Positions 6,088 to 64,000 of a DNA stretch of 64,000 nt are shown here, piece after piece; the first letter of the stretch is position 1; every line of letters starts with the position of its first letter. The position numbers and the translations under genes were made by a program. The notes under the pieces are model-generated. The model worked only from the letters and a program-made list of their open reading frames with translations, had not been told where the DNA came from and ran no database searches. Source of the DNA: a virus (taxonomy: Duplodnaviria > Caudoviricetes); IMG/VR virus record IMGVR_UViG_3300042196_000418. One strand, written 5' to 3'.

Positions 6088-6209
6088 TGCGCTCCGCGTG
6101 CCGAGACCGGCACGTGCAACACCGCGATCATAGTGCCTGGGTGTCGCAGTACCTGGCTCGGAACGAACACGCTGGCCGTGACGCTCGAGAGACGGGTATG
6201 CAGGTACCC
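6088..6209 (-). promoter_or_regulatory. Promoter cassette P1: paired palindromes plus sigma54-type -24/-12
   Basis: GGGTA-tgcagg-TACCC 6194-6209 (perfect), GGGTG-tcgcag-TACCT 6139-6154 (55 bp away). Minus-strand GG-cacgcggagc-GC at 6102-6089. Start codon 6074. Confidence 0.75.
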
Positions 6210-6497
6210 AGGACCATCAGCGCTTGAAGTCCGTGCGCGCCGCGAGTTGCGGAAGCTGGCTCCGACGAATCCGATAGACCTGGCAGCCGCTTGCATCGAC
6301 TGTCCATGCGTCGCCGGTGCCGAAGTAATCGTGGAAGAGCTTGGACGGCACGGTGCCCAGAACCGCCTGAATCAGCACGCAACCAACCTTGCGGTGTTTG
6401 ACGTCGTAGGCAATCCGATACTCTGGATCGTCCTCGGGATCGGCGAAGTCTTTCGGTGACGTCGGTGCAGAAGACACTTTGTTCTTGGTAGACATCC

Positions 6498-7055
6498 CTA
6501 TTCCTTTACGGCGGGCGGAGTGCCGGCTGCCGCGCGCGCTGCAACCTTCGGCAGCTTCGACACTGTAATTTCGGAGGCGCGTGTGAGCTGATCTTGAGTC
6601 ACGCCGACGGCGACGAGCGCTTGGAGGAATGTCTGCCGTCCCGCTTCGAAGTCGGCGAAGGCTTCCTCGCTCAATGCGTTGAACTCAGCCTTCAGCGTAT
6701 CGATATTGGCGTTGGTCTCCTTGGCCATCGCGTCGATAGCGTCGTTGGTCTCCTTGGCCATCGCGTCGATGTCGTCTTTGAGCATCATCTCGGCGATCGG
6801 CGCAAGCAAATCAACGCGGTGATCGTGTAACCAGAGCAGCAGATCCTTCAAGTCGACGAGCGTCGAGTTGTGGCCGCCTTCGTTTGTCGCTTCGAGCACG
6901 AAACGTCGTTCTCCGCCAACATCGACGATCTTGTCGTCGGCGATCTGCACCTCGTTGAGGTACACGAGGTAGCTCTCCGCGTACTCGCGCACACCGAGGG
7001 TCACGCCATCGCGAACAAATGTCATCGGGACACCTTCTCGCTGTCGCCGGTTCAT
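6498..7055 (-). CDS. Hypothetical protein with a tandem 11-aa repeat (IDAMAKETN..)
   Basis: ORF track plus a visible 33-bp-period duplication. Confidence 0.7.
   Translation of the reverse strand: MNRRQREGVPMTFVRDGVTLGVREYAESYLVYLNEVQIADDKIVDVGGERRFVLEATNEGGHNSTLVDLKDLLLWLHDHRVDLLAPIAEMMLKDDIDAMAKETNDAIDAMAKETNANIDTLKAEFNALSEEAFADFEAGRQTFLQALVAVGVTQDQLTRASEITVSKLPKVAARAAAGTPPAVKE
6711..6770. repeat. 27-bp direct repeat, 33-bp period
   Basis: gttggtctccttggccatcgcgtcgat at 6711-6737 and 6744-6770. Confidence 0.9.
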
Positions 7056-9688
7056 GCTGCCGCCTCCAGCAGCTCGACGTCACGAGGCCGCAGCTGCCGC
7101 AGCCATTCGAGGACCGCGGCCCAGCTGCGACGTGGCTCGAGCGCGCCATCCCCGAAGTCGACACACCACTGACCGTCCGTGGTGCGAAGCACCTCGTACG
7201 TGCGATTGGTCCACGTCATGCCAGGCCCCGTCTGGATCTGGCAGGTGATCAACGCACGACTTTGCGGTTCGCGAAGTGCCTCGATGGTCGCGTAGTCAGC
7301 TCTCTCGTACGTAGTCATTTGCGGTACCTCCCCTTCGCCTCTGGTAGCAGCTTCGTCGACCACTGCTCGATCGCGTGCGTGGCATCGTCGAACGTCGCAC
7401 GCGGATCTAGTACCCAACGCCAGTATGGGAGCTCGGTGGAATGCGGCGTCGCCTCGACATAGCTCTCGGCCCAGCGACCACCGACCCAGCGCCGGTAGAA
7501 CCGGAAGCGCCAGAGGCCCAGGACATCGAGCAGCCGCTGGAGGCGCGTCACGGTTTCCTCTTGGAAACGACGTCGTCCACAACACGACGAATCTCACGTC
7601 GCAAAAACGTCTCGACGCTCGCCGGTACGTGCTCGCCGGCCGCAACGCGGAAACGATTCGCATGGTACCCACGCGACAAGTGCCGGCCGCGCCGTGTACC
7701 GCTCCAGCAGCGCGTGCCGACCTCGGCGCCGCACTGGGGACAGGCGACGGAGAGGGCGTCGGTCTTCGCCGTCGCATCCATCACAGCTTGACCTCCGAGG
7801 CGATGATCACCTCACCATCCGCGAAATGGTACCAGCCGCGGCCGTGACGCCCGGCATGGTCCACGAGGGCGGACAGCGCGCAGCTGATCGCGTAGTAGTA
7901 GAGCTTCATCTCGGCCCGCGATATCTGCGTCATTCGTCGGGCTCCGCGAGCCAGCGCAGGTATGACCGGTAGATAGACCGACCGTCAGGGCACATCGCAG
8001 AGAGCACGCCATCCGGGACCGACAGTCGCAGCTCCTTGACCTGGGCGACGCGAACGTTCTCGGGATCGGTAGCTTTGCACTGCGAACAGTTCCCGAAGTG
8101 CCGAGAGACGTCATCGTGGATCCACGAGCCCTTCGTCACGAGCCGGCCTTCTTCCGAACGACAACCTCATCCGTGATGTCCTTGCCGCAGCTCTCGCAGA
8201 TCCACGCTTCTAGAGGTGCGCCATGCAGGCGGCCGTGCCCTAAGCGCGTAGGTCCGAGGTGCTTGCCATAGGAGCATGCTCGAATGGCCGGTGCGACGAC
8301 GGCGAACGTGAACTCCGGGTGCTGCCGCAAGCAGTCGGGTCCGATCGGCAAGAGCGTGGGAGCGCGAGAACCGTCGGGCCACGTCTGAAAGTCGCGCCAC
8401 TCATCGGCCAAAAGGTCAACGTCCGCAGCCACGAGCCACCACTCACCGTCGTTGGTGCGCGCCGTGCGCAGTCGAACCGCGTCCGGCCGCACGGGCCGCG
8501 CGCAGTACGCGCACAGCGCCTCGTCGTAGACGCCCATCCCGGCATCCATCCCGCCAAAGCGCTTGCACCAGCGATCGGACTGTACGAACACGAGCCGCTG
8601 CGTCACGGCAGATCGCTGTGTCACGGCAGGACCTTCGGCGCGTGTTTGCTCATGTATTCGAAGACCCTTCGTACTTCGGCTTTCGTCAGGCCATCCTCCA
8701 TCGCCACGGAGGACCAGTCCCCTGCGGTAGGGTCGTATCTCCATGCCGTGATGAAGAGACGCCACCGATCCGAGTCGCCGATGTCGCTGATCTGCGCAGT
8801 AATGGCGAGCGGAACGTGATCCTCGTAGGAATCGATACGAACGCCGGGTGGTGGTGGATGCACAGCGGTCATGGCAGTGCCTCCAGCGCCAGCTTCAACC
8901 GGTCACGAATCGTAGGCATTGGGCCCGCAGCGTCAGGCGCTGTCGTGTGCGCGGCCACCGTGGCTAGCTGTGCGGCGACAAGTCCGCAAAGTGCGTGAAC
9001 ATCATCCTCGTAGAGCTCGACGAGAACTTGCTTGCGATCGTTGCCTTCCTTGCGCCACGCGGCATCCATCGCGTCGGTCCAGGTGGCGACGAGCGTGATC
9101 TCGATCGTGGGCCGTGCCTCGCCGTCCACGATCGTCGCTCCGATCAAGGCCCTCGACCACGCCATGGCCGTGTGGTCGAACAGGTATACGAGGTCGACGC
9201 CGATCGCGATGCCGCGGGGCAATACGATCGTCACCGAGTTCCGATCGATCCGGATCTCGCTGGCCTGATACACGGCCCACGCACCGCTGTCGCGAACCTC
9301 GTAGCCAGGCTGCCCCCGCTTTTCCGGATGCTGGAGCAGAACGACTTCCAGCTCGGCAGCGTCACGCGCGCGGGACGCCACGTTGTGCGCCTCGAAGCGC
9401 GCACGGATCTCGGAACGAAAGCTCTCGGCAACGACTTCGTCGGACCATTGAAGTAGCGAGGCTTCGGTCATGACTGCCTCCACGCGTCAAAGCGCTTGAG
9501 CACGAGACGCGCGAGTGCCTGTCCTAGGATGATGACCATCACGAGGACACCGCCCTCCCATAGGCCGCGGTCGTAGTCCGCATGGTCCGCGAGCAACCAC
9601 TCGAGGCACCAATAGGTACAGGACGCGCTCAGGCTAATTGCGATGCCGAGCATGAACGGCAGGACGAAGCTTCGAAGTACACCACGCA

Positions 9689-10297
9689 TCAGGAGAGCCC
9701 CTTCCCATTAGAACCACCGTGAATCGCGCACCCTGCGTCACGACAGCCGCCTGCCTCGGACAGGATCGCGCTCGCGAGCTTACTGGCCAGTGCGGCGCTC
9801 TCGTCGGAGACGTAGGACAGCTCGTGGTAGCCGCTCACCGAGTAGCCGATGAGCTGCGCGAGCTGCTCCTCATCTTCCTGCGGGAAGTCTTGCGTACCGG
9901 TCCAGTTCAGACCGCCGTCGGAACGCGCTGGGAAGTCGGGATACACCCTGCCGCGTTCGGTATCACGATCGAGGAGTGCGTCCACGATCGTGTTCTTGCG
10001 GAAGCGGATGGTACCGCGTGCGTCCACGTGGACGGGCTGCATGGGATGCGGATCATAGCCCTTCAGTTTCTTCCCGCCGCCGAGCAGCGGAAGCGTGGGC
10101 CGCGTGACGCGGAGACCGAGAAGCTGTGCGAACTGCATGTGATCTTCGGGCGGAGCGTCGAACTTCACGATCTGACCAAGAGCGCCGCCATCGCGGTCGA
10201 ACAAGGCTCGAACGATCGCGTTCGCGCGGAAGCGAACCACGCCGTGCTCGTCTTGGATGACAGGCTGCATGGGATGGGATGGCAGCTCTTTCTTCAC
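9689..10297 (-). CDS. Hypothetical phage protein with two tandem PMQPV..D..G..RFR.N.IV domains
   Basis: HPMQPVIQDEHGVVRFRANAIV and HPMQPVHVDARGTIRFRKNTIV. Paralogs at 54433 and 56111. Confidence 0.8.
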   Translation of the reverse strand: MKKELPSHPMQPVIQDEHGVVRFRANAIVRALFDRDGGALGQIVKFDAPPEDHMQFAQLLGLRVTRPTLPLLGGGKKLKGYDPHPMQPVHVDARGTIRFRKNTIVDALLDRDTERGRVYPDFPARSDGGLNWTGTQDFPQEDEEQLAQLIGYSVSGYHELSYVSDESAALASKLASAILSEAGGCRDAGCAIHGGSNGKGLS

Positions 10298-10707
10298 GAG
10301 GATTTTCTCCCCCAGCGCTTGAGGCGCTTGGGGCGCGGCGCCATCTTGACGAGTCCGTGCCGCTGGAGCAGCCGACGAAAGTTCGAACGATCGACACCGG
10401 CCAAGAGCGCAGCATCCACCGCCGATCCCTTCGCGGACTCCATCGCGCGCACGAGATAGTTGCGCTCGAACGCGGTCGTTGCCAAGCGCTTCGCTTCGGT
10501 GAGCGGCATCAAGGTCCAGTCGACGATCAGTTCGAGCTGACGTGCATCAACCGCGATCGGCAGGCTCCAGTGCTGCTGTGCACCGCGCCAGCGGCAAATT
10601 CGAAGTTGCCCGGAGCTCTTGGAGGTGCCGACCACGATCGCAGCACCCTTGGAAGAGGTGCGCATACGATCGTAGACGATCTGGCCGATCAAAAGGCTGG
10701 TCTTCAC
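10294..10707 (-). CDS. Fis-type HTH (HTH_8) DNA-binding protein, EBP C-terminal domain without AAA+
   Basis: LTEAKRLATTAFERNYLVRAMESAKGSAVDAALLAGVDRSNFRRLLQRHGL matches the NtrC/Fis C-terminal HTH as found in myxobacterial sigma54 activators. The protein is only 137 aa, with no Walker A or GAFTGA motif. Confidence 0.8.
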   Translation of the reverse strand: MKTSLLIGQIVYDRMRTSSKGAAIVVGTSKSSGQLRICRWRGAQQHWSLPIAVDARQLELIVDWTLMPLTEAKRLATTAFERNYLVRAMESAKGSAVDAALLAGVDRSNFRRLLQRHGLVKMAPRPKRLKRWGRKSS

Positions 10708-11525
10708 GCTGCATCCTCCGTTGCTGGCAGCGCGAGCGGCAGGTCGGGCAAGACCTCAGGCGCATGCTCGGCCAGGAACACACGCCACGATCCTGGCTTC
10801 TTTTCTCCGCCACGCGTGCCCTTGACGCCACAGCCCCACAGTCCCTGGATCTTGGTCAGGCGTGGCCGGGCACGATCCTCCATCGCGACTGCACGGCGTG
10901 CGAGATCTGGGTGCTTCTTCGCGAGCTGGATGAGTTCAGCGGGCTTGAGCGACGGACAAAACCAGCAGCTCGACTTCGGTGGCACTGGCAGGCCCGCGGC
11001 GGCGATCTCCTTCATGCACCGATCACGATCCCAGCCCCACTCACGCAGGGGATAGATCCAGTTCCACGGCCCCTTGGTCTCGACGCCACCACGGCGCGAG
11101 TCGCATGGGCCCGCGTCGTAGCCGATCGCGCGACGGACCTTGCCGCCGGCCTTGATGTGCGCAGCGAAGTAGTCGGCGCAGGCGGCGTCGAGCGGCTCGC
11201 CCTTCCACTTGAGCGAGCACTTCTTGTAGCCGAACGCGAGCGACGGCAGCGTTTGGTTCACGAGGCAATTCTCCTCAAGCGTCGCGTAGTGCCCGTGCTT
11301 GGGCCGCTGCACGACGTACTGCACGTCGGTGATCGTCGGGAAGCCCACCTCGGCGAGCCACTTGTCGATGATCGGACGGTACGCGTAGGTCTCGGGCCAC
11401 TCGTTGCCGACCTGTGCGTGGCCGATCCAATGCGGTCGGATGCCGAGACGCCACCAGCCGACGAGCACTGCGGTCGAATCGACGCCCATGCCGTACGAGA
11501 GAGCCAGTAGATTGCCTGCGCTCAT
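10704..11525 (-). CDS. PAPS-reductase-like / PP-loop adenine nucleotide alpha-hydrolase
   Basis: LSYGMGVDSTA PP-loop, GNEWPETY, CSLKWK, IGYDAG, YPLREWGWDR..C, PPKSSCWFCP. Confidence 0.8.
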   Translation of the reverse strand: MSAGNLLALSYGMGVDSTAVLVGWWRLGIRPHWIGHAQVGNEWPETYAYRPIIDKWLAEVGFPTITDVQYVVQRPKHGHYATLEENCLVNQTLPSLAFGYKKCSLKWKGEPLDAACADYFAAHIKAGGKVRRAIGYDAGPCDSRRGGVETKGPWNWIYPLREWGWDRDRCMKEIAAAGLPVPPKSSCWFCPSLKPAELIQLAKKHPDLARRAVAMEDRARPRLTKIQGLWGCGVKGTRGGEKKPGSWRVFLAEHAPEVLPDLPLALPATEDAA

Positions 11526-14011: not shown

Positions 14012-14809
14012 TCACGGCAGCACGATCCCCGCCTCGCCGATCGCGAGCTTTTGCGCCTGAGTCAGATTGTCGACGAGGCCGCACTTGTTACACGCCATGC
14101 CCACGAGCGCGCGGGTGACCTGGTCGGCCGTCGAGTGGACGTCGCCGATCGGAAAGCAGTTGCTCGTCTCGCCGGCAACAATCGTCCCGTCGCACGAGAT
14201 ACTCGGCGAACAGTTGCCCGACATACCGAGCGCGGCCCGCGCGCGCAGCATCGTCAGCGCGGCGCGAACGTCGCCGAGCGAGCGCGTGAGCGAGCGCAGA
14301 TTGAACGACGTAGGTCCCTTGCGAACGGGCAGGCCGTCCTTGCCAGAGTGAGCGCGCGCAGGCTTCATGCGGCCGAGCGGAATCAGGATCGAGAGCGTCG
14401 GCACGAACACGACACGTGGATCGTCCGTCGGAACAGCCGTCGGCCGCCTTGGATAGAAGCGTGGATCGTTGGTGATCTGCACCATCAGGCGCGGCCATTC
14501 GGGCCGCAGGATCTTCGCCCGGAGCGTCGGATCGTCGAGCCACATCCCGTTGGTGATGAGGATGACGTCGTACCCTCCGTCAATCACCGTCGAAAGGAAC
14601 CACTCGACGTCGGGGTGCTCGGTAGCCTCGCCACCGCTGATCAGGATCCGGCGCGGAATGCCCGAACGCCACGCGTCGCCTTCGAGACGCTCGGTGAGCG
14701 CGAGCGCAGCAAGAAAAGTCTCGCGCGTCATGTGCTCGCCAGCTACCGTGGACCCCTCGGAGCAGTGGTTGCAGCCCATGGAGCAGTAGTTCGTGATCTT
14801 GATCAGCAC
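14012..14809 (-). CDS. Radical SAM protein
   Basis: ITNYCSMGCNHC (CxxxCxxC), ISGGEATEHP, ITNG, C-terminal Cys cluster (SPASM/twitch-like). GTG at 14809 overlaps the upstream TAG. Confidence 0.9.
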   Translation of the reverse strand: MLIKITNYCSMGCNHCSEGSTVAGEHMTRETFLAALALTERLEGDAWRSGIPRRILISGGEATEHPDVEWFLSTVIDGGYDVILITNGMWLDDPTLRAKILRPEWPRLMVQITNDPRFYPRRPTAVPTDDPRVVFVPTLSILIPLGRMKPARAHSGKDGLPVRKGPTSFNLRSLTRSLGDVRAALTMLRARAALGMSGNCSPSISCDGTIVAGETSNCFPIGDVHSTADQVTRALVGMACNKCGLVDNLTQAQKLAIGEAGIVLP

Positions 14810-15576: not shown

Positions 15577-15999
15577 TCACGACGCGACCTCAGAGGTGAG
15601 CGGGATCTCCTTGGTGGGCCAGGCGCCCGGCTCCCACGCGCGACCGTTGTAGCTGATCTTGGCGATCACCTTGGCGCCCTGCTTGACCTCGCCGCCGAGC
15701 CAGTTGCCGCCGCCCAGCTCGTAGTGCTCGATGTACGCGCGGCATGCCTTGCTAGCGTCGGCAAGCGAGGCCACGCGGAGGGTCCGTCGCGGCACGCCAG
15801 GCATCGAGCGACGGCTGTCCTGCCCGAAGTCCGGGTTGCCGACGCTCGCGAGCAGGACCTTGTAGGCACCCTTGGGCGCGACCAGCGCGGCGATCGTGCG
15901 CGTATACGCAGCCTCGTGCTCGCACACCACGCAGGAGGTTGCACCGTACAGCGGAAGGCCGCAGGTGCCACAGGGCGTCTCGGTAGCGTCGAGGTTCAT
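15577..15999 (-). CDS. Hypothetical phage protein, first gene of operon P2
   Basis: ATG 15999 lies 14 nt from the -12 GC. N-terminal CxxC..CxxC, then SVGNPDFGQ...LGGGNWLGG...ISYNGRAW. Confidence 0.7.
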   Translation of the reverse strand: MNLDATETPCGTCGLPLYGATSCVVCEHEAAYTRTIAALVAPKGAYKVLLASVGNPDFGQDSRRSMPGVPRRTLRVASLADASKACRAYIEHYELGGGNWLGGEVKQGAKVIAKISYNGRAWEPGAWPTKEIPLTSEVAS

Positions 16000-16011
16000 A
16001 CGGACAGGTAG

Positions 16012-16135
16012 AGCAGATCGCGTGCCCAGTCCACGGTCATCGTAAGTGTGCGACCGCGAACGCTGGGTACTTTGTAACCCGGTTCCGCGCTGCGTCGCGA
16101 TCCGTAACGCTCGAGACACGGGTAATTTTCTACCC
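16012..16135 (-). promoter_or_regulatory. Promoter cassette P2
   Basis: GGGTA-attttc-TACCC 16120-16135 (perfect), GGGTA-ctttgt-AACCC 16065-16080 (55 bp apart). Minus-strand GG-cacgcgatct-GC 16026-16013. ATG 15999. Confidence 0.8.
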
Positions 16136-16189
16136 AGCTCCGCTCGACGGGATCTCGCGCCACTTCGATGCGTACAGCTTCGCGTCGTC

Positions 16190-19100: not shown

Positions 19101-19657
19101 AACATGGTCCTCGGGCCGATAGTACGGCGCGGTATCCGCCGAGGGCTTGGAGATGCTCCATCCCCACCCTGCGCCCGCGACGAAGCTGAAGCCATGCAGC
19201 TTGAAGTACGGCAAGATCTCGACGCGGGCCTGTTCGGCAAGCTTCTCGACCTCGGCGTGGAACGCAGCCTGCGCTGCCTCCAGCCCCTTGGAGAACTGGC
19301 CGAGGGTCCGCTTGGAAAGATCCTTCACGACACGAACCCACGGTTGAAGCGCGAAAACGTCTCTTCGTCGCGCGCTCGATCGATCTCATCCCAGAGCGCA
19401 CGTTCGTTCAACTCGCGAAGCGCTACGAGTTCACGGTAATCCTCGACCGCCTGCCATTCATGCGCGTCCGCCGCATGCTCGTCCGCCGCCATGCTGATCG
19501 TGTCGCGAATGACATTCCAGTCGCGCGCATCATCGAGTCCGCACGCGATTGCGTCACGCGTGTCGCGAAGCGCAAGAGCCTTCAACCTACGAGCCCGCTG
19601 TGCGCGTCCAGTGCGCATGATGGCGCGGAGTAGTTTCATGTGCCGCGTGATCCGCAT
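16190..19657 (-). other. Minus-strand operon of about 12 small genes including a second PAPS-reductase-like gene
   Basis: Overlap-coupled ORFs (19325-19657, 18993-19328, 18829-18990, 17855-18832, 17670-17858, 17347-17673 and others). Confidence 0.7.
17855..18832 (-). CDS. PAPS-reductase-like / PP-loop protein (second copy)
   Basis: MKRPKVLSLGGGLDSWAML, GEWDGTY, RICTRIAKV, WIGFDGAE..R, FPLME...R..C, PRKSACMKCP. True start is likely ATG 18832. Confidence 0.8.
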   Translation of the reverse strand: MKRPKVLSLGGGLDSWAMLLDAEIRGELPDIVAFVDVGDADDRDEHPGEWDGTYRHVEEIVQPWCAARGIEFVEISARTGYLIRPDNQAARSLFQWLWNMGQIPVAGPNRICTRIAKVERFERWLDDRFHGQEVEVWIGFDGAETSRVENDPNAGKPRGPSYGREPGKSAPLRDLTIAWRWTKALAFAMTHAGRVNRFPLMERGLCRCRCEALARASGYPVPRKSACMKCPYGSRGDWKVLAAERPRVFAKIVELEARKAPTTKNGIKLSIMGFDSKTKTGTPLPVFASRPYKRKIMPCPVCGAAQRATKAAGCGYLDDGTAVAA

Positions 19658-19669
19658 GTCCTATCCAGG

Positions 19670-19891
19670 AGCAACCGCCGCGCCATCCTGACAGCAATGT
19701 GGCTGCACGCCAAGTCCCTGGTCCAAGCCAGCGGGTACTTGTAGACCCAGGGTCTAATATTCACAGATCCCGAAGCGCTCGAGACACGGGTAGCCAGCCA
19801 CTCAGGCACGGGCAATCGCGAGCTTGACGTACCGGGCGAGACCTACGGCGTCTCTTCATAGGACGTGTCAGGTCGTGGAATGCAGGGTGCA
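19670..19891. promoter_or_regulatory. Divergent promoter hub P3 (two sigma54-type promoters sharing a palindrome pair)
   Basis: GGGTA-cttgta-GACCC 19733-19748 and GGGTA-gccagc-CACTC 19788-19803 (55 bp apart). Minus TGGCGCGgcggTTGCT (GG 19684-83, GC 19672-71, ATG 19657). Plus TGGAATGcaggGTGCA (GG 19877-78, GC 19889-90, ATG 19905). Confidence 0.75.
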
Positions 19892-19904
19892 ATTAACCTC
19901 GGGC

Positions 19905-20282
19905 ATGGCGAACATGGGAACGAAGAAGGCGGCGAACGGCACGATCCTCGGAACCTACCGCGTGTGCGGTCGCTGCAAGGGTACGGGGTGGTGGTCGGGT
20001 CAGGTTCTGCGCGGGTGCTTCGCGTGCGGCGGGCAAACCATGCGCATCGGCTCGGGCCGCGTGTTCGTCGAGAGCGCGGCCGGCAAAATTGCCCGCATGG
20101 AATCTCACGCCGCGCAGGTCCGCGCCGACATCGCGGAACACATGGCGCGCCTAGAGAAGCTCGGACCCAACGCCCCTCGCTGGAAGCGTATGTCACCCGA
20201 AGCGTGGCTGGCTCGCGACCGCGATAACCTCGCACGCATCGAAGGCGAAATCGCAAGCACTCGCAAGGAAGCGGGCCTGTGA
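19905..20282 (+). CDS. Zinc-finger/coiled-coil hypothetical protein
   Basis: CGRCKGTG...CFACGG then coiled coil. ATG 15 nt after the promoter GC. Confidence 0.7.
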   Translation: MANMGTKKAANGTILGTYRVCGRCKGTGWWSGQVLRGCFACGGQTMRIGSGRVFVESAAGKIARMESHAAQVRADIAEHMARLEKLGPNAPRWKRMSPEAWLARDRDNLARIEGEIASTRKEAGL

Positions 20283-27507: not shown

Positions 27508-28851
27508 TCACGACACGACCTCCTTCGACAAGATCTTCGACGTCTTCATCTTCTGCGCCTTGCGCGCGGTCTTCTTCGCGAGCGCCTCAGCCTTCGCCGC
27601 ATTCATGGCCATCAGCTCCGCGTAACGGGCGATGATCGAGGCGGCATCGGTGTATTTCACTTCGAGCCCCAGCAACGCCGCGACTGCGAGACGAACCTTG
27701 GCCAACAGATCCGCCTCGTCCGCCGTGGGCATGACCGTCGGCCAGCCCTCGGTATAAAGCAAGTGCTTCGGGATGCGAGCCTCGATCTGCTCACGTGCAC
27801 GAGCACGCTGCTTAGCGGCGGCGATCGCAGCCGCCGTCTCCTCGTCGAGCAACTGCGGGGCAATGTCAGCGAGCCACGACGAGCCCTGGAACGCGAAGGT
27901 CGACGCGATCTCCAGCGCGACCATCGTGCGGAACACCGGTACGTTGTCCTCGCACGTCGTAGACGCGACCAGGTCCGAACGCTGCGCCATAATGCAGTAC
28001 CGACACGAGATCCGACTCATGCCGTAAACCGTGTAGCCCTCGTGGAGATCGAAGCCGCGCGCTGCGCAGAACGCATAGACATCGCGATCGGTCCACTCGG
28101 CGATCGGGTTCCAGTCGAGGCCCGTGGTGCAGGAGCCCTTGTGCTCAAGGCGCTTGTTGCGCTGCGCCGTCTTGGCGCCGCTACGCTGGCGACTCTCCGC
28201 GCGGCGGATGCCAGCGGCCGAAATGATCGTCTGACCAGGAAACCGCTTGACGAGCGCGGCGGCGATCGGCGCACTCTTGAGTTCTGACGTGCAGAACCGC
28301 ATCGAGGGCGTCGACCAGGGGAGGATGACCTTGACGCATTCGAGATTCGCGTAACGGCGACGGTTGTTCGACCAGCGGCCCTGCCAGCGCTTCATCATGC
28401 CGCCGGCTGCACGACGCACGACAATCAGCTCGACGCCGAGCCGGTCTGCGAGGCGCTGACACGTCGGCAGCGAGTCGGTCCATTCGACGCTCAGCTCCGG
28501 GCGCTCGTCGCCGAGGTCGGCGTGTACGAGGATGCGCGGACCGGTGTGGCCGATCGTGTCCAGGTACTCGATCGTCGCAAGGGCGGCGGCGCAGGAATCC
28601 TTGCCGCCGGACACACCGATCGCGACCGGAGCGTTCGCGGCCAGCGCCGCGGCCAAATCGGAGATCGCCGCGATCTCGACCTTGGCCTCCTTGCACTTGG
28701 CAGCTGACGTCGATCGCGCCGCGATCAATGCTTCGAGCTTCGCGATCCGCTCCGAGAGCGACTCGACACCGCGGTCGATGCGACCGGGGAGCCCGAGCGA
28801 AACAAGCTTCTGACCTGGGCTGCATGCCGACATTTGAACCTTCGACATCAT
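27508..28851 (-). CDS. Phosphoadenosine phosphosulfate reductase family protein (mobile-element type)
   Basis: VAIGVSGGKDS, VHADLG..EW, FCTSELK, GIRRAES..R, WNPIAEW, LH..Y..YGMSRISCRYCIM. ATG 28851 lies 14 nt from the promoter -12 position. Confidence 0.88.
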   Translation of the reverse strand: MMSKVQMSACSPGQKLVSLGLPGRIDRGVESLSERIAKLEALIAARSTSAAKCKEAKVEIAAISDLAAALAANAPVAIGVSGGKDSCAAALATIEYLDTIGHTGPRILVHADLGDERPELSVEWTDSLPTCQRLADRLGVELIVVRRAAGGMMKRWQGRWSNNRRRYANLECVKVILPWSTPSMRFCTSELKSAPIAAALVKRFPGQTIISAAGIRRAESRQRSGAKTAQRNKRLEHKGSCTTGLDWNPIAEWTDRDVYAFCAARGFDLHEGYTVYGMSRISCRYCIMAQRSDLVASTTCEDNVPVFRTMVALEIASTFAFQGSSWLADIAPQLLDEETAAAIAAAKQRARAREQIEARIPKHLLYTEGWPTVMPTADEADLLAKVRLAVAALLGLEVKYTDAASIIARYAELMAMNAAKAEALAKKTARKAQKMKTSKILSKEVVS

Positions 28852-28863: not shown

Positions 28864-29058
28864 TCCACGCGCGGTGCCAGCGTGAGTACGAGCCTAAGCC
28901 ACTGATCTGACACCGAGGTAGCGCCGCACCCACCCGAGCTCGTGGCGAGCCGGATTCTGGGTAGCTCTCTACCCGTGTCTTGAGCACGCCAATCAGCACT
29001 GCGGCCAAACGGCTTGACGCGAGCTTAGCTTCGGATCACGTCCGGCACGCCGCGAGCA
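28864..29058. promoter_or_regulatory. Divergent promoter hub P4
   Basis: GGGTA-gctctc-TACCC 28959-28974 (perfect), AGGTA-gcgccg-CACCC 28916-28931. Plus GG-cacgccgcga-GC 29044-29057 with ATG 29071. Minus TGGCACcgcgcgTGGA (GG 28878-77, non-canonical -12 GG) with ATG 28851. Confidence 0.75.
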
Positions 29059-37018: not shown

Positions 37019-37140
37019 GGGTAGTCCAGTACCCGGCTCTCGAGCGCCACGCCGCCGTGAGCAGGGAGCTCTGGGTATCGAGCTACCCAGGTTTTACGTC
37101 CGCGGGCTTAGGCCGCTGGAATCACGGCACGCCGCAAGCA
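37019..37140 (+). promoter_or_regulatory. Promoter cassette P5
   Basis: Two perfect palindromes GGGTA-gtccag-TACCC 37019-37034 and GGGTA-tcgagc-TACCC 37073-37088 (54 bp apart). GG-cacgccgcaa-GC 37126-37139. ATG 37154. Confidence 0.85.
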
Positions 37141-37153: not shown

Positions 37154-37597
37154 ATGCCGCGCTACATGACGTTCCGATTCGACGTGACCGCACTCACCGA
37201 GCGCCAGCGCGAGATCCTCGCTGGCTCGGTGATCGCTCAGCATGAGGCGAGCGACTTCAACTACGAGACGACCCAGGAGTGGGCGGACGAGAACTACCCC
37301 ACCGTCAAGGTTGCTGAGGTCTGCCACTTTTGCGGGCAGGTGAACGAGAACGGTGAGTGCGGTGGCGAGGGCGAGGGCATCTGCACCGAGCTTATGTGCG
37401 TGTCCGACTTCGCGCTGCCCGGCAAGCTTTCACCCACGTACAGCGACGACGTCGAAGCGTACGTGCGCGACTACTGCGCCGAGCACGGCATCGAGGACTC
37501 GCTCGTGCCCTACCGCGCTGACGGACTGACGTACTACCAGCAGCTCGCGTACATGGTGCGCGAGTACCACGACCTTCCCCAGCCCAAAGGCGAATGA
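37154..37597 (+). CDS. Hypothetical protein, first gene of P5 operon, shares the FDVT..EASD domain with 30250
   Basis: FRFDVTALTERQREILAGSVIAQHEASD...YPTV, then a Cys-rich domain. Confidence 0.75.
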   Translation: MPRYMTFRFDVTALTERQREILAGSVIAQHEASDFNYETTQEWADENYPTVKVAEVCHFCGQVNENGECGGEGEGICTELMCVSDFALPGKLSPTYSDDVEAYVRDYCAEHGIEDSLVPYRADGLTYYQQLAYMVREYHDLPQPKGE

Positions 37598-38716: not shown

Positions 38717-40237
38717 ATGAGCGTCACGCAAAAGAACTGGTTCGACGTCGATCGCAAGGGGCTCGCGAAGCTCATCGAGCGCCGCGGTGGCGGCTCGGGC
38801 TGGGGCAGCGAGGGCGGTGGCAAGATCGCCCTGCTCCTGGAGCTGATCGCGAACGCGCTCGACGCCGACGGCGTGACGCACGTCGAGGTCGTGCTGGAAC
38901 CCGAGCAGGGCGTGCCTCACGCGACGATCCTGGTAAGCGACGACGCCCCCGGCGGCTTCGAGGACATCACCCATGCCTGGACGCTGTTCGCCGAGTCGAG
39001 CCGCAAGGCGTACCCGACCAAGCGCGGGCGGTTCGATCTGGGCGAGAAGCTTGTGCTCGCACTCTGCGTCGAGGCGTCGATCATCTCCACCAAGAGCGCG
39101 GTGCAGTTCGACGCGCGCGGACGCGCGCCGATGAAGGCGCGGCGCGAACGCGGCACCGAGTTCCAGGGCATCGCGCGCATCACGCGTGCCGAGCTGGCCG
39201 AGATCAAGGCCGGCCTCAAGAAGATCATCGTGCCCGCGGGCGTCACGCTCCTCATCAACGGTGAGCAGCTGCCCGTGCGCGTGCTCCTCAAGACGGTCGA
39301 GGCAACCCTGGCGACCGAGATCTCGGATGACGAGGGTGTGCTGCGTAGGTCCATCCGCAAGACGACGGTGGACATCTACGAGCCACTGCCTGGCGAGACC
39401 CCGATGCTCTACGAACTGGGCATGCCCGTCGTCGAGACGGGTGACAAGTTCCACGTGTCCGTATCGCAAAAAGTGCCGCTCAATATGGACCGCGACAACG
39501 TGACACCCGCGTACCTGCGCGACGTGCGCACGGTCGTCGTCAACGCGATGCATGACAAGCTCACCGAGGACGACGGCAACGCAACGTTCGTGAACGAGGC
39601 CCTCGCCGATGATGATGTCGCGCCCGAGGCCGCGAACAAGGCGCTCGATCTCAAGTTCACCAAGAAGCGCGCGATCTGGGATCCGAACGATCTCGAAGCG
39701 AACATGAACCTGGAGAGCCAGGGCTACACGCTGATCAAGGGCGGGCAGCTCACCGGTGACCAGTGGGCGAACGCCAAGAAGCACGATCCGAAGCTCAAGC
39801 CCGCAGGTCAGATCGCGCCGACCAAGAAGGTCCTGTTCGCGCCCGACGGCAAGGACTGCTGGGTGCCGCGCGCGAAGTGGACGCCCGCGATGCGAGCCGT
39901 CGTCGCGTACGCAACCGAGGTCTGCCGCGCGCTGATCGGCTCGCGCGTCGAGGTGTCGGTCATGTCCGACATCACCGAGAGCGCGGGTGCCTGCTACGGC
40001 AGCCAGGGCCTCGTGTTCAACCTCGGGCGCCTGGGGCACGACTTCTTCAACGCGTGCAGCCACGGGCCGACCGATCAGCTGAACCAGCTGCTCCTCCACG
40101 AGCTGGGCCACGGCTTGCCCGGCGGAGACAACCACCTCGACGCCAAATACCACGAGGGTCTCTGCAAACTGGGAGCGAAGCTCACCAGGCTCGCGCTCGA
40201 CCTGCCCCATCTGTTCACCTGGAGCTTCTTGCCATGA
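38717..40237 (+). CDS. GHKL (HATPase_c) ATPase with C-terminal HExxH putative zinc-peptidase domain
   Basis: LLELIANALDA (N box), VSDDAPGG (G1), RGRFDLGEK (G2), RGTEF (G3). C-terminal LLLHELGH...H. SD aggag. Confidence 0.85.
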   Translation: MSVTQKNWFDVDRKGLAKLIERRGGGSGWGSEGGGKIALLLELIANALDADGVTHVEVVLEPEQGVPHATILVSDDAPGGFEDITHAWTLFAESSRKAYPTKRGRFDLGEKLVLALCVEASIISTKSAVQFDARGRAPMKARRERGTEFQGIARITRAELAEIKAGLKKIIVPAGVTLLINGEQLPVRVLLKTVEATLATEISDDEGVLRRSIRKTTVDIYEPLPGETPMLYELGMPVVETGDKFHVSVSQKVPLNMDRDNVTPAYLRDVRTVVVNAMHDKLTEDDGNATFVNEALADDDVAPEAANKALDLKFTKKRAIWDPNDLEANMNLESQGYTLIKGGQLTGDQWANAKKHDPKLKPAGQIAPTKKVLFAPDGKDCWVPRAKWTPAMRAVVAYATEVCRALIGSRVEVSVMSDITESAGACYGSQGLVFNLGRLGHDFFNACSHGPTDQLNQLLLHELGHGLPGGDNHLDAKYHEGLCKLGAKLTRLALDLPHLFTWSFLP

Positions 40238-44341: not shown

Positions 44342-44357
44342 GGGTATAAAACAACCC
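44342..44357. promoter_or_regulatory. Single imperfect palindrome copy
   Basis: ctGGGTA-taaaac-AACCC in the 44331-44401 gap. No GG-N10-GC at the usual spacing. Confidence 0.35.
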
Positions 44358-51700: not shown

Positions 51701-51795
51701 GAGGAGCACGGCCATGACGACGAGCACCCAGGATCAACGAGCTGCACCGCGTGCGACGACTGCATCGCCTACGAGGCGGATCCGGGAGAATCCGC

Positions 51796-54798: not shown

Positions 54799-56110
54799 CC
54801 GAGGACCACGCTCGAGTCATCCACCGGATCATCGTTGGACTCGGCGGCGGAGGCTTCCAGGCGATCTGCGTCTGCGGCTGGAGTTCCGCAAGGAGCTGGG
54901 TTCGTGCCGAGGTCACCAAGGCCGGAAGTGTCCATAGACGGAAAGCACTACTGAGGAGTATCCCGTGAGGACCATCAAGAAGATCAAGGCCGGCGACATG
55001 CGCGTGTACCCGTTCAACCACGCCTTCAGCTACCAGGAAAAGAGAGTGTTTGCTCTCATCGAGAAGCTCAAGGCCACGATGGCCGAGCTGACAACCGAGC
55101 TGGCGAGAACGCGTGTGAACGCCTCCGCGCCACCCGAGAACTACGACCCGAAGTCGATTGAAGCGGTCGACGAGATCGATCGCCAGCTCGACAGCCTCGA
55201 TCTCCAACTGCGCTGGGTCCCCGGAGGCGCGTATAGGTATGAATAGCAAGGCGCGCGCGCTCACCAACACGGTAATGCTCGGTGCTGGCGGAGGCCCGTT
55301 GTTCAACGACGCTGGAGAACTCTCGTGAAGATCATCAAAGATCCGAAGAGTGCCTGGACGATCCAGATCTCGTGCCGCCAGTGCTCGGCCCTCCTGGAAA
55401 TTGTCGATACGGACGTCTACATGGCCGAGTTGGGCAGCGGCATGGACGATTTCAACAGCGCAAACTGCTACGTCGTCGACTGCGCTGTCTGCAAGCACTT
55501 CATCGAGCTGGATCCCGCGAAGCTGCCGGAATGGGTGAGACGCGAGCGCAAAGACGCAAGGAGATCCAGCCCATGACCACTACGCGCCACCACTGCCCCG
55601 CGTGCGGCGGTCTCATCTCCGAGCCGATCGACGCACCCTTGCATTGCAAACATTGCGACTGGCACCTCATCACGCTGAAGGAGTGGCGAGAGCTGACGCC
55701 GTTGCAACAGGGATATGCCCACTACATGCAGTCTAGCTGGCCAACGAGCGAGCTCGCGAAGGTCAAGAATCCGTACGCGAAGGGAACCCGCCAGTGGAAG
55801 GAATTCTGCGACGGGGAACAAAGAGCCACGCGCAGCGTGATGGACGGTGAAGAATGAAGAAGCACGCGCCACGCGGACGCTTCGCGAAGAAGCACCCGAC
55901 GCTGGAGAACAAGGGCGTTCAGCGGATGCACCCACGGATCATCAACGTCAGCTTCGATGTCACCCAAGAAGTCGCTGCGGCCCTGCGAACGCTCCGCGAC
56001 ACGGGGCTGTTCGGCAACGGAATTGACTGCGCGTCGGTCGCAGAGGAACTGCTGCGTCGCTCGCTGCTCGAACCACAGATCGTTCCCTACTGGAGACGAG
56101 GGACAAGACC

Positions 56111-60101: not shown

Positions 60102-60828
60102 ATGCCACGCCACCAGCAAGTCACGACCTGTCGCAAAGGCGGTCCCGTCGAAAAGTTCTGCAACTGCGAAAACTGCTCGTTGTCGGTGTGCTCGGTCTGC
60201 GGTGCCTACGAAGACGGGCTCACGACCGATTGTCCAGGATTGAAGGTCGCCTTCAACCGTCAGAAGGAGGTCTACGAAACCAGCCTCGACTACACAGACG
60301 AACGTGGCTGGCACCTGGGAGCGCCGATGAAGCGCAGAACGCCGCGCTTCGAATCGACGAAGCTGCTGCCCGAGCTGCCACGCGTCGATCCGCGGACGGT
60401 CATCGCGCCGTCGATCTACTGGGCCGCAGTCGATCGTCATGTGAGTCTCCAGCACGAGCTCGCACAGAAGGCGATCGCATGGGCGCTTGCAGAAAGCACA
60501 GCCGAGGATCACTATCGCCGCGATCACCGGGAAGATCAACCTGCGCGAACCGAACGAGCATACGCAAGAGCTACTCGGCAAGCTCGAACACGCGAAGCTG
60601 GAATTCCGTCTCGCGAACCAGCGTGCAGAGACGTGTGACGACGAGTTCCGGCAAGCAGCAAGGACGCTCGTCACCGCGTTGAAGGAGGGCCAAGTCGCTG
60701 CCGTCGCCAACGATAAGACGCTGTTCACGCGTACGTGCGGCTGCACGGTCGTCGCAGGAGCGGCGTGCCCGCACTTCGTCGCCGCGAACAGCGGCATCGG
60801 GGAACCCCGGAAAACCACAGTTCGGTAA
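60102..60828 (+). pseudogene. Cys-rich/coiled-coil protein, probably split by a frameshift near 60510
   Basis: Frame 60102-60638 turns low-complexity after AESTAEDH, while the overlapping frame (to 60828) continues a plausible coiled coil AAITGKINLREPNEHTQELLGKLEHAK. Confidence 0.5.
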
Positions 60829-60966
60829 TCAGCCAAATCCCGCGGGACCCCAGGTGAGATCGGCCCTCAGGATCTGCTAACAGATCCGCTAACGATACGT
60901 TAGACTGTCCCCCAGCTGTGCTGCCATCGCCACGCCGCTCCCGCCGATCCGTGGACTCCTCGACAC

Positions 60967-61035
60967 GGGTACCTATCTACCCAGGTTTACTGATCCAAAC
61001 GTTACCTGCGGTCTCGAGCTGGCCCAGGAGTCGCA
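60967..61035 (+). promoter_or_regulatory. Promoter cassette P6
   Basis: GGGTA-cctatc-TACCC 60967-60982 (perfect). TGG-cccaggagtc-GC (GG 61021-22, GC 61033-34). ATG 61050. Confidence 0.75.
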
Positions 61036-61049
61036 CCTAGGTTCAAGGC

Positions 61050-61436
61050 ATGCACCCGCTTTCAATGCTATTCGGAGCAGCACTCTTCGCCCTCGGCGTT
61101 CTCGCCGTCGCGCTCGCAGATCGCATCCGCGGCCTGCGCGTCTCTCGCGATATGGCGCCGCCGCGTGAGCGGGCGCCCCGCGCGCCTTCGGTCTCCGCCC
61201 AGCCCGTCGAGACTGCCGAGCTGCTCCGGTCGACTCTCCCAAAGCCGCCCCGCGCGCCGCGCGCCGAACCGAAGGTCGCCAGCGCCGAGGACGACGTGAT
61301 CGCCGCACTCGTGACCGCGGGCTACAAGAAGTCGATCGCGACGGAAGCGGCGTGGGCGTGCAGCCCCGCCGAGCGCACGACGGTCGAGCGCTGGACGGCG
61401 GCAGCACTCCGCTGCGCGCACGGAGGGATGTCGTGA
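61050..61436 (+). CDS. Membrane-anchored RuvA C-terminal (domain III) protein
   Basis: N-terminal TM helix (LFGAALFALGVLAVALA), Pro/Arg-rich linker, EDDVIAALVTAGYKKSIATEAA...TTVERWTAAALR resembling RuvA domain III (EAV.ALVALGYK...SETLIREALR). No OB-fold or HhH domains. Confidence 0.7.
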   Translation: MHPLSMLFGAALFALGVLAVALADRIRGLRVSRDMAPPRERAPRAPSVSAQPVETAELLRSTLPKPPRAPRAEPKVASAEDDVIAALVTAGYKKSIATEAAWACSPAERTTVERWTAAALRCAHGGMS

Positions 61437-63028
61437 GCCGCGTCGGCGTCTACCAGGCCGCAGCCGCTCGCTGTGGCACCACGATCGAACGTGCCTCCAA
61501 CGGCATCCCGCCGCGTATCGGCGGAGGCATCACCAAACACCCTCTCGCGCGAGACGTCGCCGAAACACTCGTCCGTGATCTCAAGGCGCTCGGTGCAGAG
61601 GCGAAGGTTTGCTCCCACGGGCCGCAGGACGATCAGGCGTTCGTCTACCTGTCGGGCTGCTCGTTCCAAAAGGGCGACCTCTCGTGACCAAGTTCAACCT
61701 CTCGATCGACCTTCGCACGCACGGTGATAGCGCTAGCGCTACTGCGAGCATGTTCCCATGAAGGCGAAGCTGCTCGCCGCTGCCCCGGCAGCCGATCGTC
61801 GATACGATGTGCACGTCGTGCCCATTCAGACCGAACGCAGGCAAGCCAAAGATCAACGTGACGCCGGCAGAGCTGGAGAAGTTCAAGGACACTGCCCGGC
61901 GCAGCGAGTTCTACTGTCACGAGACCGTGCTCGAAGACCCGCGCACGACTGTCGGCGCCGATAGCGAGCCGTCGCCTCGCGTGCAGTCTCACTTCCGCGT
62001 CTGCCGTGGCGGGTGGGGGCTCAAGCTCAAGCACCTCGGAGCAGCGCGACGGAAAGAACAGTAGCCCATGGTCAAGCTCGAACGGATCACCGAGGAGACC
62101 CTGACGCCCGAGCACACCGAGCGCGTTCGGCGTGCGGTGCTCGGCATCCCCCGCAAGAACTCAGTCCACCGCGCGATCCTCGCCGACTGCGCGCGCGTGC
62201 TCACCGGTGACAAGGCCGCTCGCGCGACCATCGTGCGCACCTGGAACGCGATGGTCACGCCGATCGACGAGCTGATCGAAAACTCCTCGCTGGGCGCCGC
62301 CATGCGGGACATCAAGGAGCGCGGCCTGGATGCGCACCTCAAGACCCTGGACGAAGAGCTGCGCCCCAAGCGTCGCGTGCGGAGGAAGCCGTAGCGATGT
62401 CCAGGCACAACAAACCCTGCTTGCCCAGCTATCACCCAAGTGGAGCGAACGATGCGCGATGAAAGCCCGGGATGGTGCAAGCCGCGCAAACCGTGCGTCG
62501 GGTGCGACGAAATTGTAGCGACTGGAATCAGCTACCAACCGCACACGTGTCTAGCCTCAACGCCTGTCGGGGCGGCTATCGGCCTTGGCCCGTGTGCTGA
62601 GTGCGAGTCGCTGCGCGACGACCCGTGCCGTTCTCCGAGCAGGCGTACGCGACTGCCCCATGCGGGTCGTAGGAGGGTTGGATGACAAACGAACCGACCA
62701 AGGTGGCAGCGGAGAGCGAGGCTCCCGATCACCGCTTCCTCACGAACATCCACCAACGCAAACTCGAAACCGATCAGATGATCCAGCGACGGCGACGGTT
62801 CACAAACTACGCCACGCCCGCAGAGAACCTGCCGATGAAGCGATGGACCGCGGGAATCGCCGCGCTACGCCGGTTCGCTGCCGGCGAACGATGGAATCGC
62901 CGCACGAGGCGGCTCACCGTGCAGCGCCTCTACGTCGAGGGGCTGATCGATGATGTCGGCGATGACTACAACTGGAAAATAACCGAAGCCGGCAAGGAGT
63001 TCCTGTTCCGGCTCGACGGAGGCTGCTG

Positions 63029-63259
63029 ATGGGTCGTCACGACCACGTCCACGTCCACGCGTCCGAGACCCGCGTCGACGTCGTGTGCGAGTCCTGTCAG
63101 GCGCCGATCAACGTCGCGTGCTCATGTGCCGAAGGAACCCTGACGTCGGACCGAGCAACGTCTGACCGTGCGTCCGAGACCCGCGTCGACGTCGTGTGCG
63201 AGTCCTGTCAGGCTCCGGTCGGAGTCGCGTGCACGTGCGCCGACGGAGTTTTCACGTGA
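63029..63259 (+). CDS. Small His/Cys-rich metallothionein-like protein built from a tandem duplication
   Basis: MGRHDHVHVH plus 2x ASETRVDVVCESCQAP..VAC.CA.G. Confidence 0.65.
   Translation: MGRHDHVHVHASETRVDVVCESCQAPINVACSCAEGTLTSDRATSDRASETRVDVVCESCQAPVGVACTCADGVFT
63059..63213. repeat. 44-bp exact direct repeat, 111-bp period
   Basis: gcgtccgagacccgcgtcgacgtcgtgtgcgagtcctgtcaggc at 63059-63102 and 63170-63213. Confidence 0.9.
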
Positions 63260-63262
63260 CCG

Positions 63263-63385
63263 GGGTACTTCGATACCCGGCTCAGCACCGCCACGCGATG
63301 TGTGAACCGCGAGCTCTGGGTAGCTACCTACCCACGGTCACCTCTCGCGAACTTACGTGCAGATCGGACCGGCACGCGGGTCGCA
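63263..63385 (+). promoter_or_regulatory. Promoter cassette P7 (upstream of ruvB)
   Basis: Perfect GGGTA-cttcga-TACCC 63263-63278 and GGGTA-gctacc-TACCC 63318-63333 (55 bp apart). GG-cacgcgggtc-GC 63371-63384. ATG 63399. Confidence 0.85.
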
Positions 63386-63398
63386 TTGAAGGATTGCC

Positions 63399-64000
63399 AT
63401 GAACGCTCCTGCACTCCGCCTCGTTCCCGACGCGTCTCCGCACTCGACCCGCTCGACGGCGACGGCAGAGGATCCGGCCCTCCGCCCGACCTCGTTCGAC
63501 GACTACATCGGCCAGGCAGACGTGATCGCGAACCTGCGCCAATCGGTTCGCGCCGCCAAGCGCGGCGGCTGGCAGCTCGACCACATGCTGTTCGGTGGTC
63601 CTGCGGGCCTCGGCAAAACCTCGCTCGCGGCAGTCGTCGCGGCCGAGCTGGGCGGAAAGTTCCGAGCGACCTCAGCCCCCGCGATCGAGCACAAGGGTGC
63701 CCTCGCGTCGCTGCTCACCACGCTGGAGGACGGCGACGTCCTCTTCATCGACGAGATCCACGCGCTCGATCGCGCCGTCGCCGAGTGCCTGTATTCGGCC
63801 ATGGAGGATCGCGTGATCGATCTGCCGGCTGGCAAGCGGGTCATCCGCGTGCCACTGCCAAAGTTCACGCTGCTCGGAGCCACGACCCACGCAGGCAAGC
63901 TCTCCAAGCCGCTGCTCGATCGCTTCGGCTTCATCTGGCAGCTCAAGCCCTACACGCTGCCCGAGCTGGCAACGATCCTCGCCCGATCGGCGAGAAAGCT
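63399..64000 (+). CDS. ruvB: Holliday junction branch-migration AAA+ ATPase RuvB, 3'-partial
   Basis: Manual translation: ALRPTSFDDYIGQ...LDHMLFGGPAGLGKTSLA...TSAPAIEH.G.L..LL..LEDGDVLFIDEIH...LYSAMED...LPKFTLLGATTHAG.LSKPLLDRFG. Open to the window end. Confidence 0.95.
   Translation, partial: MNAPALRLVPDASPHSTRSTATAEDPALRPTSFDDYIGQADVIANLRQSVRAAKRGGWQLDHMLFGGPAGLGKTSLAAVVAAELGGKFRATSAPAIEHKGALASLLTTLEDGDVLFIDEIHALDRAVAECLYSAMEDRVIDLPAGKRVIRVPLPKFTLLGATTHAGKLSKPLLDRFGFIWQLKPYTLPELATILARSARK

Follow-up and report, generated by a model that had tools for sequence, protein, structure and literature searches.

A 64,000-nucleotide stretch of a Caudoviricetes genome (IMG/VR record IMGVR_UViG_3300042196_000418; hereafter, the window) carries nine promoter-like cassettes of about 140 bp, in which palindromic boxes are coupled to a GG-N10-GC-type core and, at a nearly constant distance, to the start codon of a gene train. 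We conclude, with a probability of roughly 0.7, that these cassettes are enhancer-dependent sigma-54 (RpoN) promoters of a huge phage. An earlier note on this DNA had proposed such promoters, and the points in that proposal that can be tested on sequence all came out in its favour. We assign the window to a huge phage. It encodes a 506-residue protein with a weak match to GHKL ATPases (38717-40237, plus strand) that shares 43% identity with a protein from an uncultured phage of 485 kb.

The window holds about 150 genes, most of them small and closely packed, in long same-strand trains with divergent hubs at 19.7 and 28.9 kb. Perfect GGGTA-N6-TACCC palindromes occur eight times, at 6194, 16120, 28959, 37019, 37073, 60967, 63263 and 63318, exactly as had been listed, and the previous estimate of fewer than 0.1 by chance in 64 kb agrees with 0 matches across 100 dinucleotide-preserving shuffles of the window. 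If up to two mismatches are allowed, 21 sites are present versus 6.9 ± 2.7 expected from the shuffled window, and this set includes the degenerate partner boxes at 6139, 16065, 19733, 19788 and 28916. Paired boxes are 55, 55, 55, 54 and 55 bp apart, and 43 bp apart at the 28.9-kb hub; both the partners and these spacings were found where they had been reported. Every box falls within one of the rare gaps between genes, as called with a self-trained codon-usage gene caller, which bears out the claimed intergenic placement.

When the window and its relatives (see below) are taken together, the spacings between good boxes fall into classes of 43, 51-56, 63-65 and 76 bp, with no values in between, and these classes correspond to 4, 5, 6 and 7 helical turns. 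GGGT-N8-ACCC boxes are found in every cassette, with the dyad symmetry and helix phasing expected of activator sites at sigma-54 promoters. The enhancer is itself a large palindrome, with outer half-sites CCTGGGTA and inner half-sites GAGACGGGTA, frequently inside TCTCGAG. One isolated near-perfect box, GGGTATAAAACAACCC (one mismatch), lies at 44342-44357 in a 71-bp gap with no recognisable core downstream, and a model built from relatives scores it at E 1.7.

The cores are similarly regular. We number the promoters P1 to P7 along the window, with the two divergent hubs each contributing a minus and a plus promoter from a single box pair (P3-minus and P3-plus, P4-minus and P4-plus). The nine promoters counted earlier are all present, the ninth being on the minus strand at 19684-19670. 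GG-N10-GC had been claimed as their common signature; it is followed by A or T in eight of them, and the claim fails at P4-minus, the minus-strand promoter of the 28.9-kb hub, which reads GG-N10-GG. Six of the nine cores read GGCAC(G). The motif GGCACG-N6-GCW has eight copies in the window, and five of these follow a box start by 52-54 bp and precede the start codon of a first gene by 13-14 nt; less strict cores make up the rest of the nine. Measured from box start to GG, the distance is 52-54 bp in six promoters and 64, 85 and 89 bp in the other three, in agreement with the 37-39, 49, 70 and 74 bp measured previously from the box end. The 64 and 85 bp distances equal the standard plus one and plus three helical turns, and the 89 bp distance of P3-plus is off phase. 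In the standard cassettes the box end lies 36-38 bp from the core.

The start codons of all nine promoters are in frame with the downstream gene. Across the window and its relatives the start codon lies 13-15 nt past the GC in all 21 cassettes, confirming the fixed distance that the earlier note had described, and 19 of the 21 have C as the base at -1, compared with 55% for other genes.

In textbook form, sigma-54 promoters comprise upstream sites, a bend site and a -24/-12 core with the consensus TGGCACG-N4-TTGCW, in which GG and GC are 10 nt apart. A site for integration host factor (IHF) between enhancer and core is common in such promoters, not obligatory. All six standard cassettes of the window (P1, P2, P4-minus, P5, P6 and P7) have an IHF-like element, TC-N6-TTR, ahead of the core and at a constant distance from the box, and it is nearly invariant in the cassettes of relatives. 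Its spacing is exactly that of the established IHF consensus WATCAANNNNTTR, a consensus from E. coli that may not be that of the host. The cassettes lack a -10-like hexamer, and a consensus scan of 28-48 kb found 0 sigma-70-type promoters where 2.0 were expected. Repressor operators overlapping sigma-70 -35 and -10 elements were rejected as an explanation of the boxes on these grounds, and because the boxes end 36-38 bp before the core.

Relatives were retrieved with the 506-residue protein and, separately, with a helix-turn-helix (HTH) protein described below, never with the motif. In relatives that share 63-76% protein identity and derive from many different metagenomes, some of the contigs being 180-460 kb long, the same cassette occurs 5' of the orthologous genes: a pair of GGGT-N8-ACCC boxes separated by 4 to 7 helical turns, GGCACG-N6-GCA 53-54 bp past the proximal box and ATG or GTG 13-14 nt further on. 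Three more contigs (94, 189 and 532 kb), retrieved via the HTH protein, are also cassette-bearing. Among the large relatives are Ga0214473_10000008 (333 kb), Ga0265316_10000001 (461 kb) and ERZ25039492 contig_17925 (532 kb). A footprint alignment was made from 14 cassettes, all from relatives. In the box region, all 14 share the arms G.GT and ACCC and the C that precedes the box; in the bend element, they share one T of TT; and in the core, they share the -24 GG, the A of GGCA and the -12 G. At least 90% of them also retain the remaining two G of GGGT, both the C of TC and the second T in the bend element, the core's GGCA C, its -12 C and the A that follows, and a C immediately ahead of the start codon. 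The intervening positions vary freely. The core corresponds to the sigma-54 consensus at the contacted positions, where GG, the A and the -12 G never change and the C, the -12 C and the A rarely do.

A model (R1) built from the relatives' alignment only was run over the whole unfiltered window and recovered P5, P1, P7, P2, P6, P4-minus and P4-plus, with E from 1e-13 to 4e-5. All of these matches are oriented toward their own gene, and there is no further match at E 0.001. Recovery by a model that contains no window sequence rules out chance and argues against simple copies of a repeat. To judge by these comparisons, the cassette is a conserved feature of a phage clade whose contigs measure 90-530 kb.

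The distribution of the cassette has limits. The complete 221-kb genome IMGVR_UViG_3300024054_000362 (G001), which is 66% identical, has no boxes and no excess of sigma-54-like cores. Among IMG/VR records G001-G005 a single box was found, in G002, and cores showed no excess over a control pattern. The 485-kb phage genome LR745208 has no boxes and no Sigma54_activat match. An IMG/VR pattern scan for a box with CTCGAG gave no match, and one for a box with a core gave 17 single matches, which were set aside as being at about the estimated chance level. Megablast of 12 kb against a phage collection gave no match.

The cassettes themselves are as follows, with E-values from the relatives-only model. 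On the minus strand, P1 has a perfect distal box at 6194-6209, with GTCTCTCGAGCG next to it on the promoter side, a proximal box with two mismatches at 6139-6154, 55 bp from the distal one, and a GGCACG-N6-GCA core at 6088-6102 (E 5e-12); GTG at 6074 is 14 nt past the GC, and an alternative minus-strand start, ATG at 6047, has AGGAG upstream. P2, also on the minus strand, has a perfect distal box at 16120-16135, a proximal box with one mismatch at 16065-16080 and a GGCACG-N6-GCT core at 16012-16026 (E 4e-9), with ATG at 15999, 13 nt past the GC; its operon includes the HTH gene. The 19.7-kb hub (19733-19803) serves both strands with boxes at 19733-19748 and 19788-19803. Its minus-strand core, TGGCGC-N5-TTGCT at 19670-19685, is 64 bp from the 19748 box, one turn above the standard, with ATG at 19657, 13 nt on, and its plus-strand core, GGAATG-N6-GCA at 19877-19891, is 89 bp from the 19788 box, with ATG at 19905.

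The 28.9-kb hub (28916-28974), likewise serving both strands, has a box with two mismatches at 28916-28931 and a perfect one at 28959-28974, 43 bp apart. P4-minus (GGCACC-N6-GGA, 28864-28878, minus strand; E 2e-6) leads to ATG 28851 of a PAPS-reductase-like gene, and P4-plus (GGCACG-N6-GCA, 29044-29058, plus strand; E 4e-5) lies 85 bp from the 28959 box and leads to ATG 29071. The remaining three are on the plus strand. P5 has an enhancer of two perfect boxes 54 bp apart (37019-37088), its bend element TC-N6-TTA at the fixed offset (37098-37110) and a GGCACG-N6-GCA core at 37126-37140 (E 1e-13), with ATG at 37154, 14 nt past the GC and with AAGGAGG between. P6 has a single perfect box of inverted type at 60967-60982, with CTCGACAC at its left, and a GGCCCA-N6-GCA core at 61021-61035 (E 1e-6), 54 bp from the box start; its first gene (ATG 61050) has a weak match to the RuvA C-terminal domain. 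P7 has two perfect boxes 55 bp apart (63263-63333) and a GGCACG-N6-GCA core at 63371-63385 (E 6e-11), and the ATG at 63399 is the start of ruvB, a gene that the earlier note had also placed under a cassette. In the small gene just 5' of the P7 enhancer, a segment of about 78 bp is duplicated about 111 bp apart with 88% identity (63059-63247). The note had also held that nearly all small-gene operons are driven in this way. The nine cassettes stand, and the generalisation is too strong, given about 24 kb of plus-strand genes (37-61 kb) with no cassette.

How might such a promoter work? We infer sigma-54 dependence, IHF binding, the transcription start sites and the identity of the box reader, and the steps would run as follows. 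Host RNA polymerase with sigma-54 would rest on the GG-N10-GC core as a closed complex. A dimeric HTH protein would occupy one or two 16-bp GGGT-N8-ACCC boxes on the same helix face, whose centres lie about 45 bp and about 100 (or 110) bp before the GG, and an IHF-type bending protein would bind TC-N6-TTR, the bend bringing the bound activator round onto sigma-54. An AAA+ activator would then open the promoter by hydrolysing ATP, and transcription would start within a few nt of the start codon, giving a leaderless or near-leaderless mRNA for the first gene of the train. The ATPase would come from the host or from a gene beyond the sequence read. The complete G001 genome lacks genes for both sigma-70-family factors and the RNA polymerase beta subunit, so the lineage probably relies on the host polymerase.

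Counted conventionally, the start codon would open at about +2 to +4. The fixed distance of 13-15 nt (21 of 21) and the C at -1 (19 of 21) fit initiation at or next to the start codon. A passage of PMC12754779 gives 5 nt or fewer as the criterion for a leaderless transcript, and by that criterion a transcript with its start codon at +2 to +4 would be leaderless. In a broader and decidedly tentative extension of the sigma-54 reading, the phage clade would run its early or accessory programme on the host's sigma-54 polymerase by means of a private enhancer code, read by ATPase-less activator domains that either tether a motor or switch enhancers off, with leaderless mRNAs as the product. The phages would thereby have at their disposal an orthogonal, ATP-gated expression channel that survives the shut-off of sigma-70 transcription.

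The candidate reader of the boxes is a 137-residue protein encoded within the P2 operon (10294-10707, minus strand) and predicted to consist of a five-strand beta domain and a Fis/NtrC-type HTH, with no ATPase. Over 53 residues, the C-terminal domain shares 51% identity with the DNA-binding domain of an NtrC-type activator from a bacterium (pairwise E 4e-15), and its C-terminal 50 residues align with Fis at E 0.07. The window copy scores 18.4 bits against Pfam HTH_8, under the 22-bit cut-off, and several homologues carry PF02954; by these comparisons we assign the protein a C-terminal HTH_8 domain. The predicted structure (mean predicted local distance difference test score, pLDDT, of 84) places a long helix between the beta domain and a three-helix HTH, and a fold search returned only weak PWWP, KOW and Fis matches, all with E of at least 0.02. 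As in Fis and the C-terminal domains of NtrC-family activators, a long helix and HTH stand at the C-terminus, but the phage protein lacks AAA+ and receiver domains and has the small five-strand beta domain at its N-terminus instead.

About 90 homologues were found at E ≤0.001, the longest of their contigs measuring 532 kb; about 80 of them span the full length, with 58-87% identity. In the recognition helix, DRSNFRRLLQRH, ten of 12 residues never vary among 34 sequences and the remaining two are kept in at least 90%, a near-invariance that parallels that of the box arms. All three contigs retrieved via this protein carry cassettes, and no homologue was found in G001, which also lacks the boxes. 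The cases are few, and the co-occurrence of protein and boxes is suggestive. With no AAA+ Sigma54_activat or receiver domain, the protein was rejected as a full enhancer-binding activator; alone it cannot open a sigma-54 promoter and is not an activator by itself. Our guess is that it competes at the boxes with a full activator or tethers a separate ATPase. No long protein with a closely similar HTH was found, which is weak evidence.

Several observations weigh against the sigma-54 reading. None of the window proteins of at least 140 residues has a Sigma54_activat or sigma-54 domain, and no six-frame open reading frame of the window, its flanks or the relatives' loci contains a GAFTGA-type loop. 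PF00158 matches in G001, G003 and G004 are partial, covering only part of the profile. The GAFTGA-containing activator or rpoN gene that the earlier note had envisaged elsewhere on the element was found neither in the window nor in the flanks and relatives' loci read. The core has imperfections as well: the -12 element is without the consensus TT, the -12 doublet of P4-minus is GG, and the proximal box is nearer to the core than classical activator sites. At P1, gene callers favour an ATG 27 nt further down than GTG 6074. GGAG, GAGG or AGGA occurs between the -12 GC and the start codon in four of eight window cassettes, a share close to the 59% for all genes, and a canonical sigma-54 start site would exclude such ribosome-binding-like spacer sequences from the mRNA. 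These sequences may be used by read-through transcripts, for which the lack of convincing terminators leaves room, or the start site may lie further upstream or be non-canonical; ribosome-binding-site statistics do not separate a leaderless from a leadered model.

The system is also narrow in its distribution. G001, at 66% identity, repeats a different intergenic motif, CTCTCGCTTTGT (for example, L048 1370-1660 and 9948-10010), which suggests that the promoter class was replaced within the clade and marks the cassette system as lineage-specific. Perfect box pairs in 185,579 species genomes proved to be unrelated REP-like (repetitive extragenic palindromic) repeats in Lysobacterales and other Gammaproteobacteria metagenome-assembled genomes (MAGs), tandem repeats and scattered, isolated operator-like pairs, none with the phage architecture, and a box-pair scan of 401 Myxococcota genomes added nothing. 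Within the larger set, GGGTAACTTGTTACCC flanked by CGTAGGGT or ACCCTACG forms a REP-like element that recurs very often in a Lysobacterales MAG and an uncultured gammaproteobacterial MAG (L010, L012, L019, L038 and others) and is unrelated to the phage boxes.

A myxobacterial host, at which the earlier note had hinted, was not borne out by the Myxococcota genomes and is for us a guess from two analogies, a 5-N6-5 box format like that of PexR sites and weak HTH matches. The HTH domain matched activators only in Myxococcota and deltaproteobacterial genomes among those tested, at 33-41% identity, and such genomes hold many activators. RuvB was discarded as a pointer to the host, being equidistant from bacteria of several phyla (48-53% identical).

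Could the resemblance to sigma-54 promoters be convergent? The boxes would then be operators for phage Fis-type HTH proteins, and either a factor specified by the phage or a different form of the host polymerase would recognise the GG...GCA. A conserved box-reader candidate is encoded and no ATPase was found, ribosome-binding-like sequences occur where a sigma-54 start site would exclude them, and the proximal box is centred near -70, the position at which Fis and class I activators act on sigma-70 promoters. Huge phages, moreover, often evolve private promoter motifs, and G001 has a different one. Yet the relatives keep exactly the sigma-54 contacts at exactly the same spacing, no -10-like hexamer or sigma-70-type promoter was found, and neither the window nor G001 showed a sigma or polymerase gene, so we consider convergence unlikely. 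Closer to our own interpretation is a true sigma-54 core whose boxes are mainly repressor sites, at which the ATPase-less phage domain blocks enhancers used by host activators and turns the early trains off later. An activator-type DNA-binding domain without a motor would suit this role, and the HTH gene inside the cassette-driven P2 operon fits negative feedback, but binding is only predicted and conservation of the boxes is equally compatible with activation. We give this version a small chance, and it would refine the sigma-54 interpretation instead of replacing it.

That the cassettes are not promoters at all, and are selfish repeats, recombination or packaging sites, or terminator hairpins between genes, seems to us very improbable. 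It is true that the boxes can form short hairpins, a few with a short T run, that a terminator scan flagged 37070-37091, and that one cassette lies in a gene module differing between two 99.9%-identical strains. Against this, conserved positions are scattered with variable ones between them, unlike repeats that are copied whole, and every cassette is directed at an adjacent gene whose start codon lies 13-15 nt past the core. Intrinsic terminators were rejected specifically: the stems are only 4-8 bp, a T run follows only some boxes, and boxes occur at divergent hubs, where no transcript ends.

The enhancer-dependent sigma-54 interpretation finds its closest parallels in bacterial promoters such as glnAp2, with NtrC sites, and nifH, with NifA sites and IHF. 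Common to both sides are a GG-N10-GC core matching TGGCACG-N4-TTGCW, paired dyad sites on one helix face, an element with the spacing of the IHF consensus, and bidirectional enhancers. The phage system differs in being virus-borne, in having at least nine copies in 64 kb as the only recognisable promoter class, in its very compact cassette with the proximal site about 45 bp upstream of the GG, and in a start codon fixed 13-15 nt past a -12 GC whose TT is not conserved. According to a passage of PMC12754779, the sigma-54 activator PexR of Myxococcus xanthus recognises interrupted palindromes of 5-N6-5 format arranged in tandem. That system shares with the phage tandem 5-N6-5 palindromes upstream of the promoter and a Fis-type HTH, its sigma-54 promoter being a validated one, whereas its half-sites are CACCG/CGGTG in place of GGGTA/TACCC, and PexR is a bacterial stress regulator.

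Phage precedents are sparse. For Pseudomonas phage YuA, a passage of PMC10914365 (citing Ceyssens 2008) lists one promoter with a sigma-54-like region (P015), one sigma-70-like promoter and nine with a phage-specific motif. YuA thus offers a phage promoter attributed to host sigma-54, in contrast to a clade-conserved cassette with enhancer boxes and an IHF-like site that heads many operons. For Pectobacterium phage Q19, a passage of PMC7693777 reports a weak prediction of a sigma-54-like protein. We found no phage-wide enhancer and sigma-54 programme in published full text, and none in huge phages. The statement in the earlier note that no such phage programme had been described stands for a phage-wide programme and needs qualification for the single YuA promoter, as presented in that passage of PMC10914365. 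The machinery is classical; new are its viral carrier, its scale, the compact phased cassette, the start-codon coupling and the ATPase-less binding domain.

The known ways in which phages seize transcription rely on phage polymerases, sigma-70-family factors or modifiers of the host polymerase. To our knowledge, the enhancer-dependent sigma-54 route is almost undocumented as a genome-wide phage programme. If the sigma-54 reading is true, huge phages can use a host channel that is silent without an ATPase, tying gene expression to an activator. It would also mean that an activator can be used as separate parts, with a DNA-binding domain apart from the motor, and that sigma-54 promoters can couple directly to leaderless translation. 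A requirement for rpoN would narrow the search for the hosts of these soil phages. The cassette is compact, modular and conserved, and so can be tested directly in reporter and in vitro systems.

Beyond the promoters, the window is identical to a Logan contig and 99.9% identical to part of the 172-kb JGI contig Ga0395805_0000100, from which it differs by one gene module. The two strains diverge fully left of window position 55762 (compare L001:1-3075), and the alternative module of the JGI contig is headed by a cassette of its own (L001:2173). The presence of a cassette at the head of a strain-variable module raises the possibility that cassettes mark the borders of exchangeable modules.

The accessory or early-type genes of the window include ruvB and genes for PAPS-reductase-like, radical-SAM, DUF488 and NADAR proteins, a YgjP-like metallopeptidase, a phosphatase, a GNAT protein and the GHKL-like ATPase. 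No Rfam families and no tRNA genes were found in the window. The 506-residue GHKL-like protein is kept at 39-76% identity in at least 80 huge-phage contigs and is a useful marker gene for the clade. The PAPS-reductase-like protein (447 residues; 27508-28851, minus strand) and the radical-SAM protein (14012-14809, minus strand) are each encoded in a cassette-driven operon, and both may belong to a nucleotide or DNA modification pathway. About 6 kb past the window end, a 501-residue Ser/Thr protein kinase is encoded at L001:17519-19024, and we speculate that it might modulate a host regulator.

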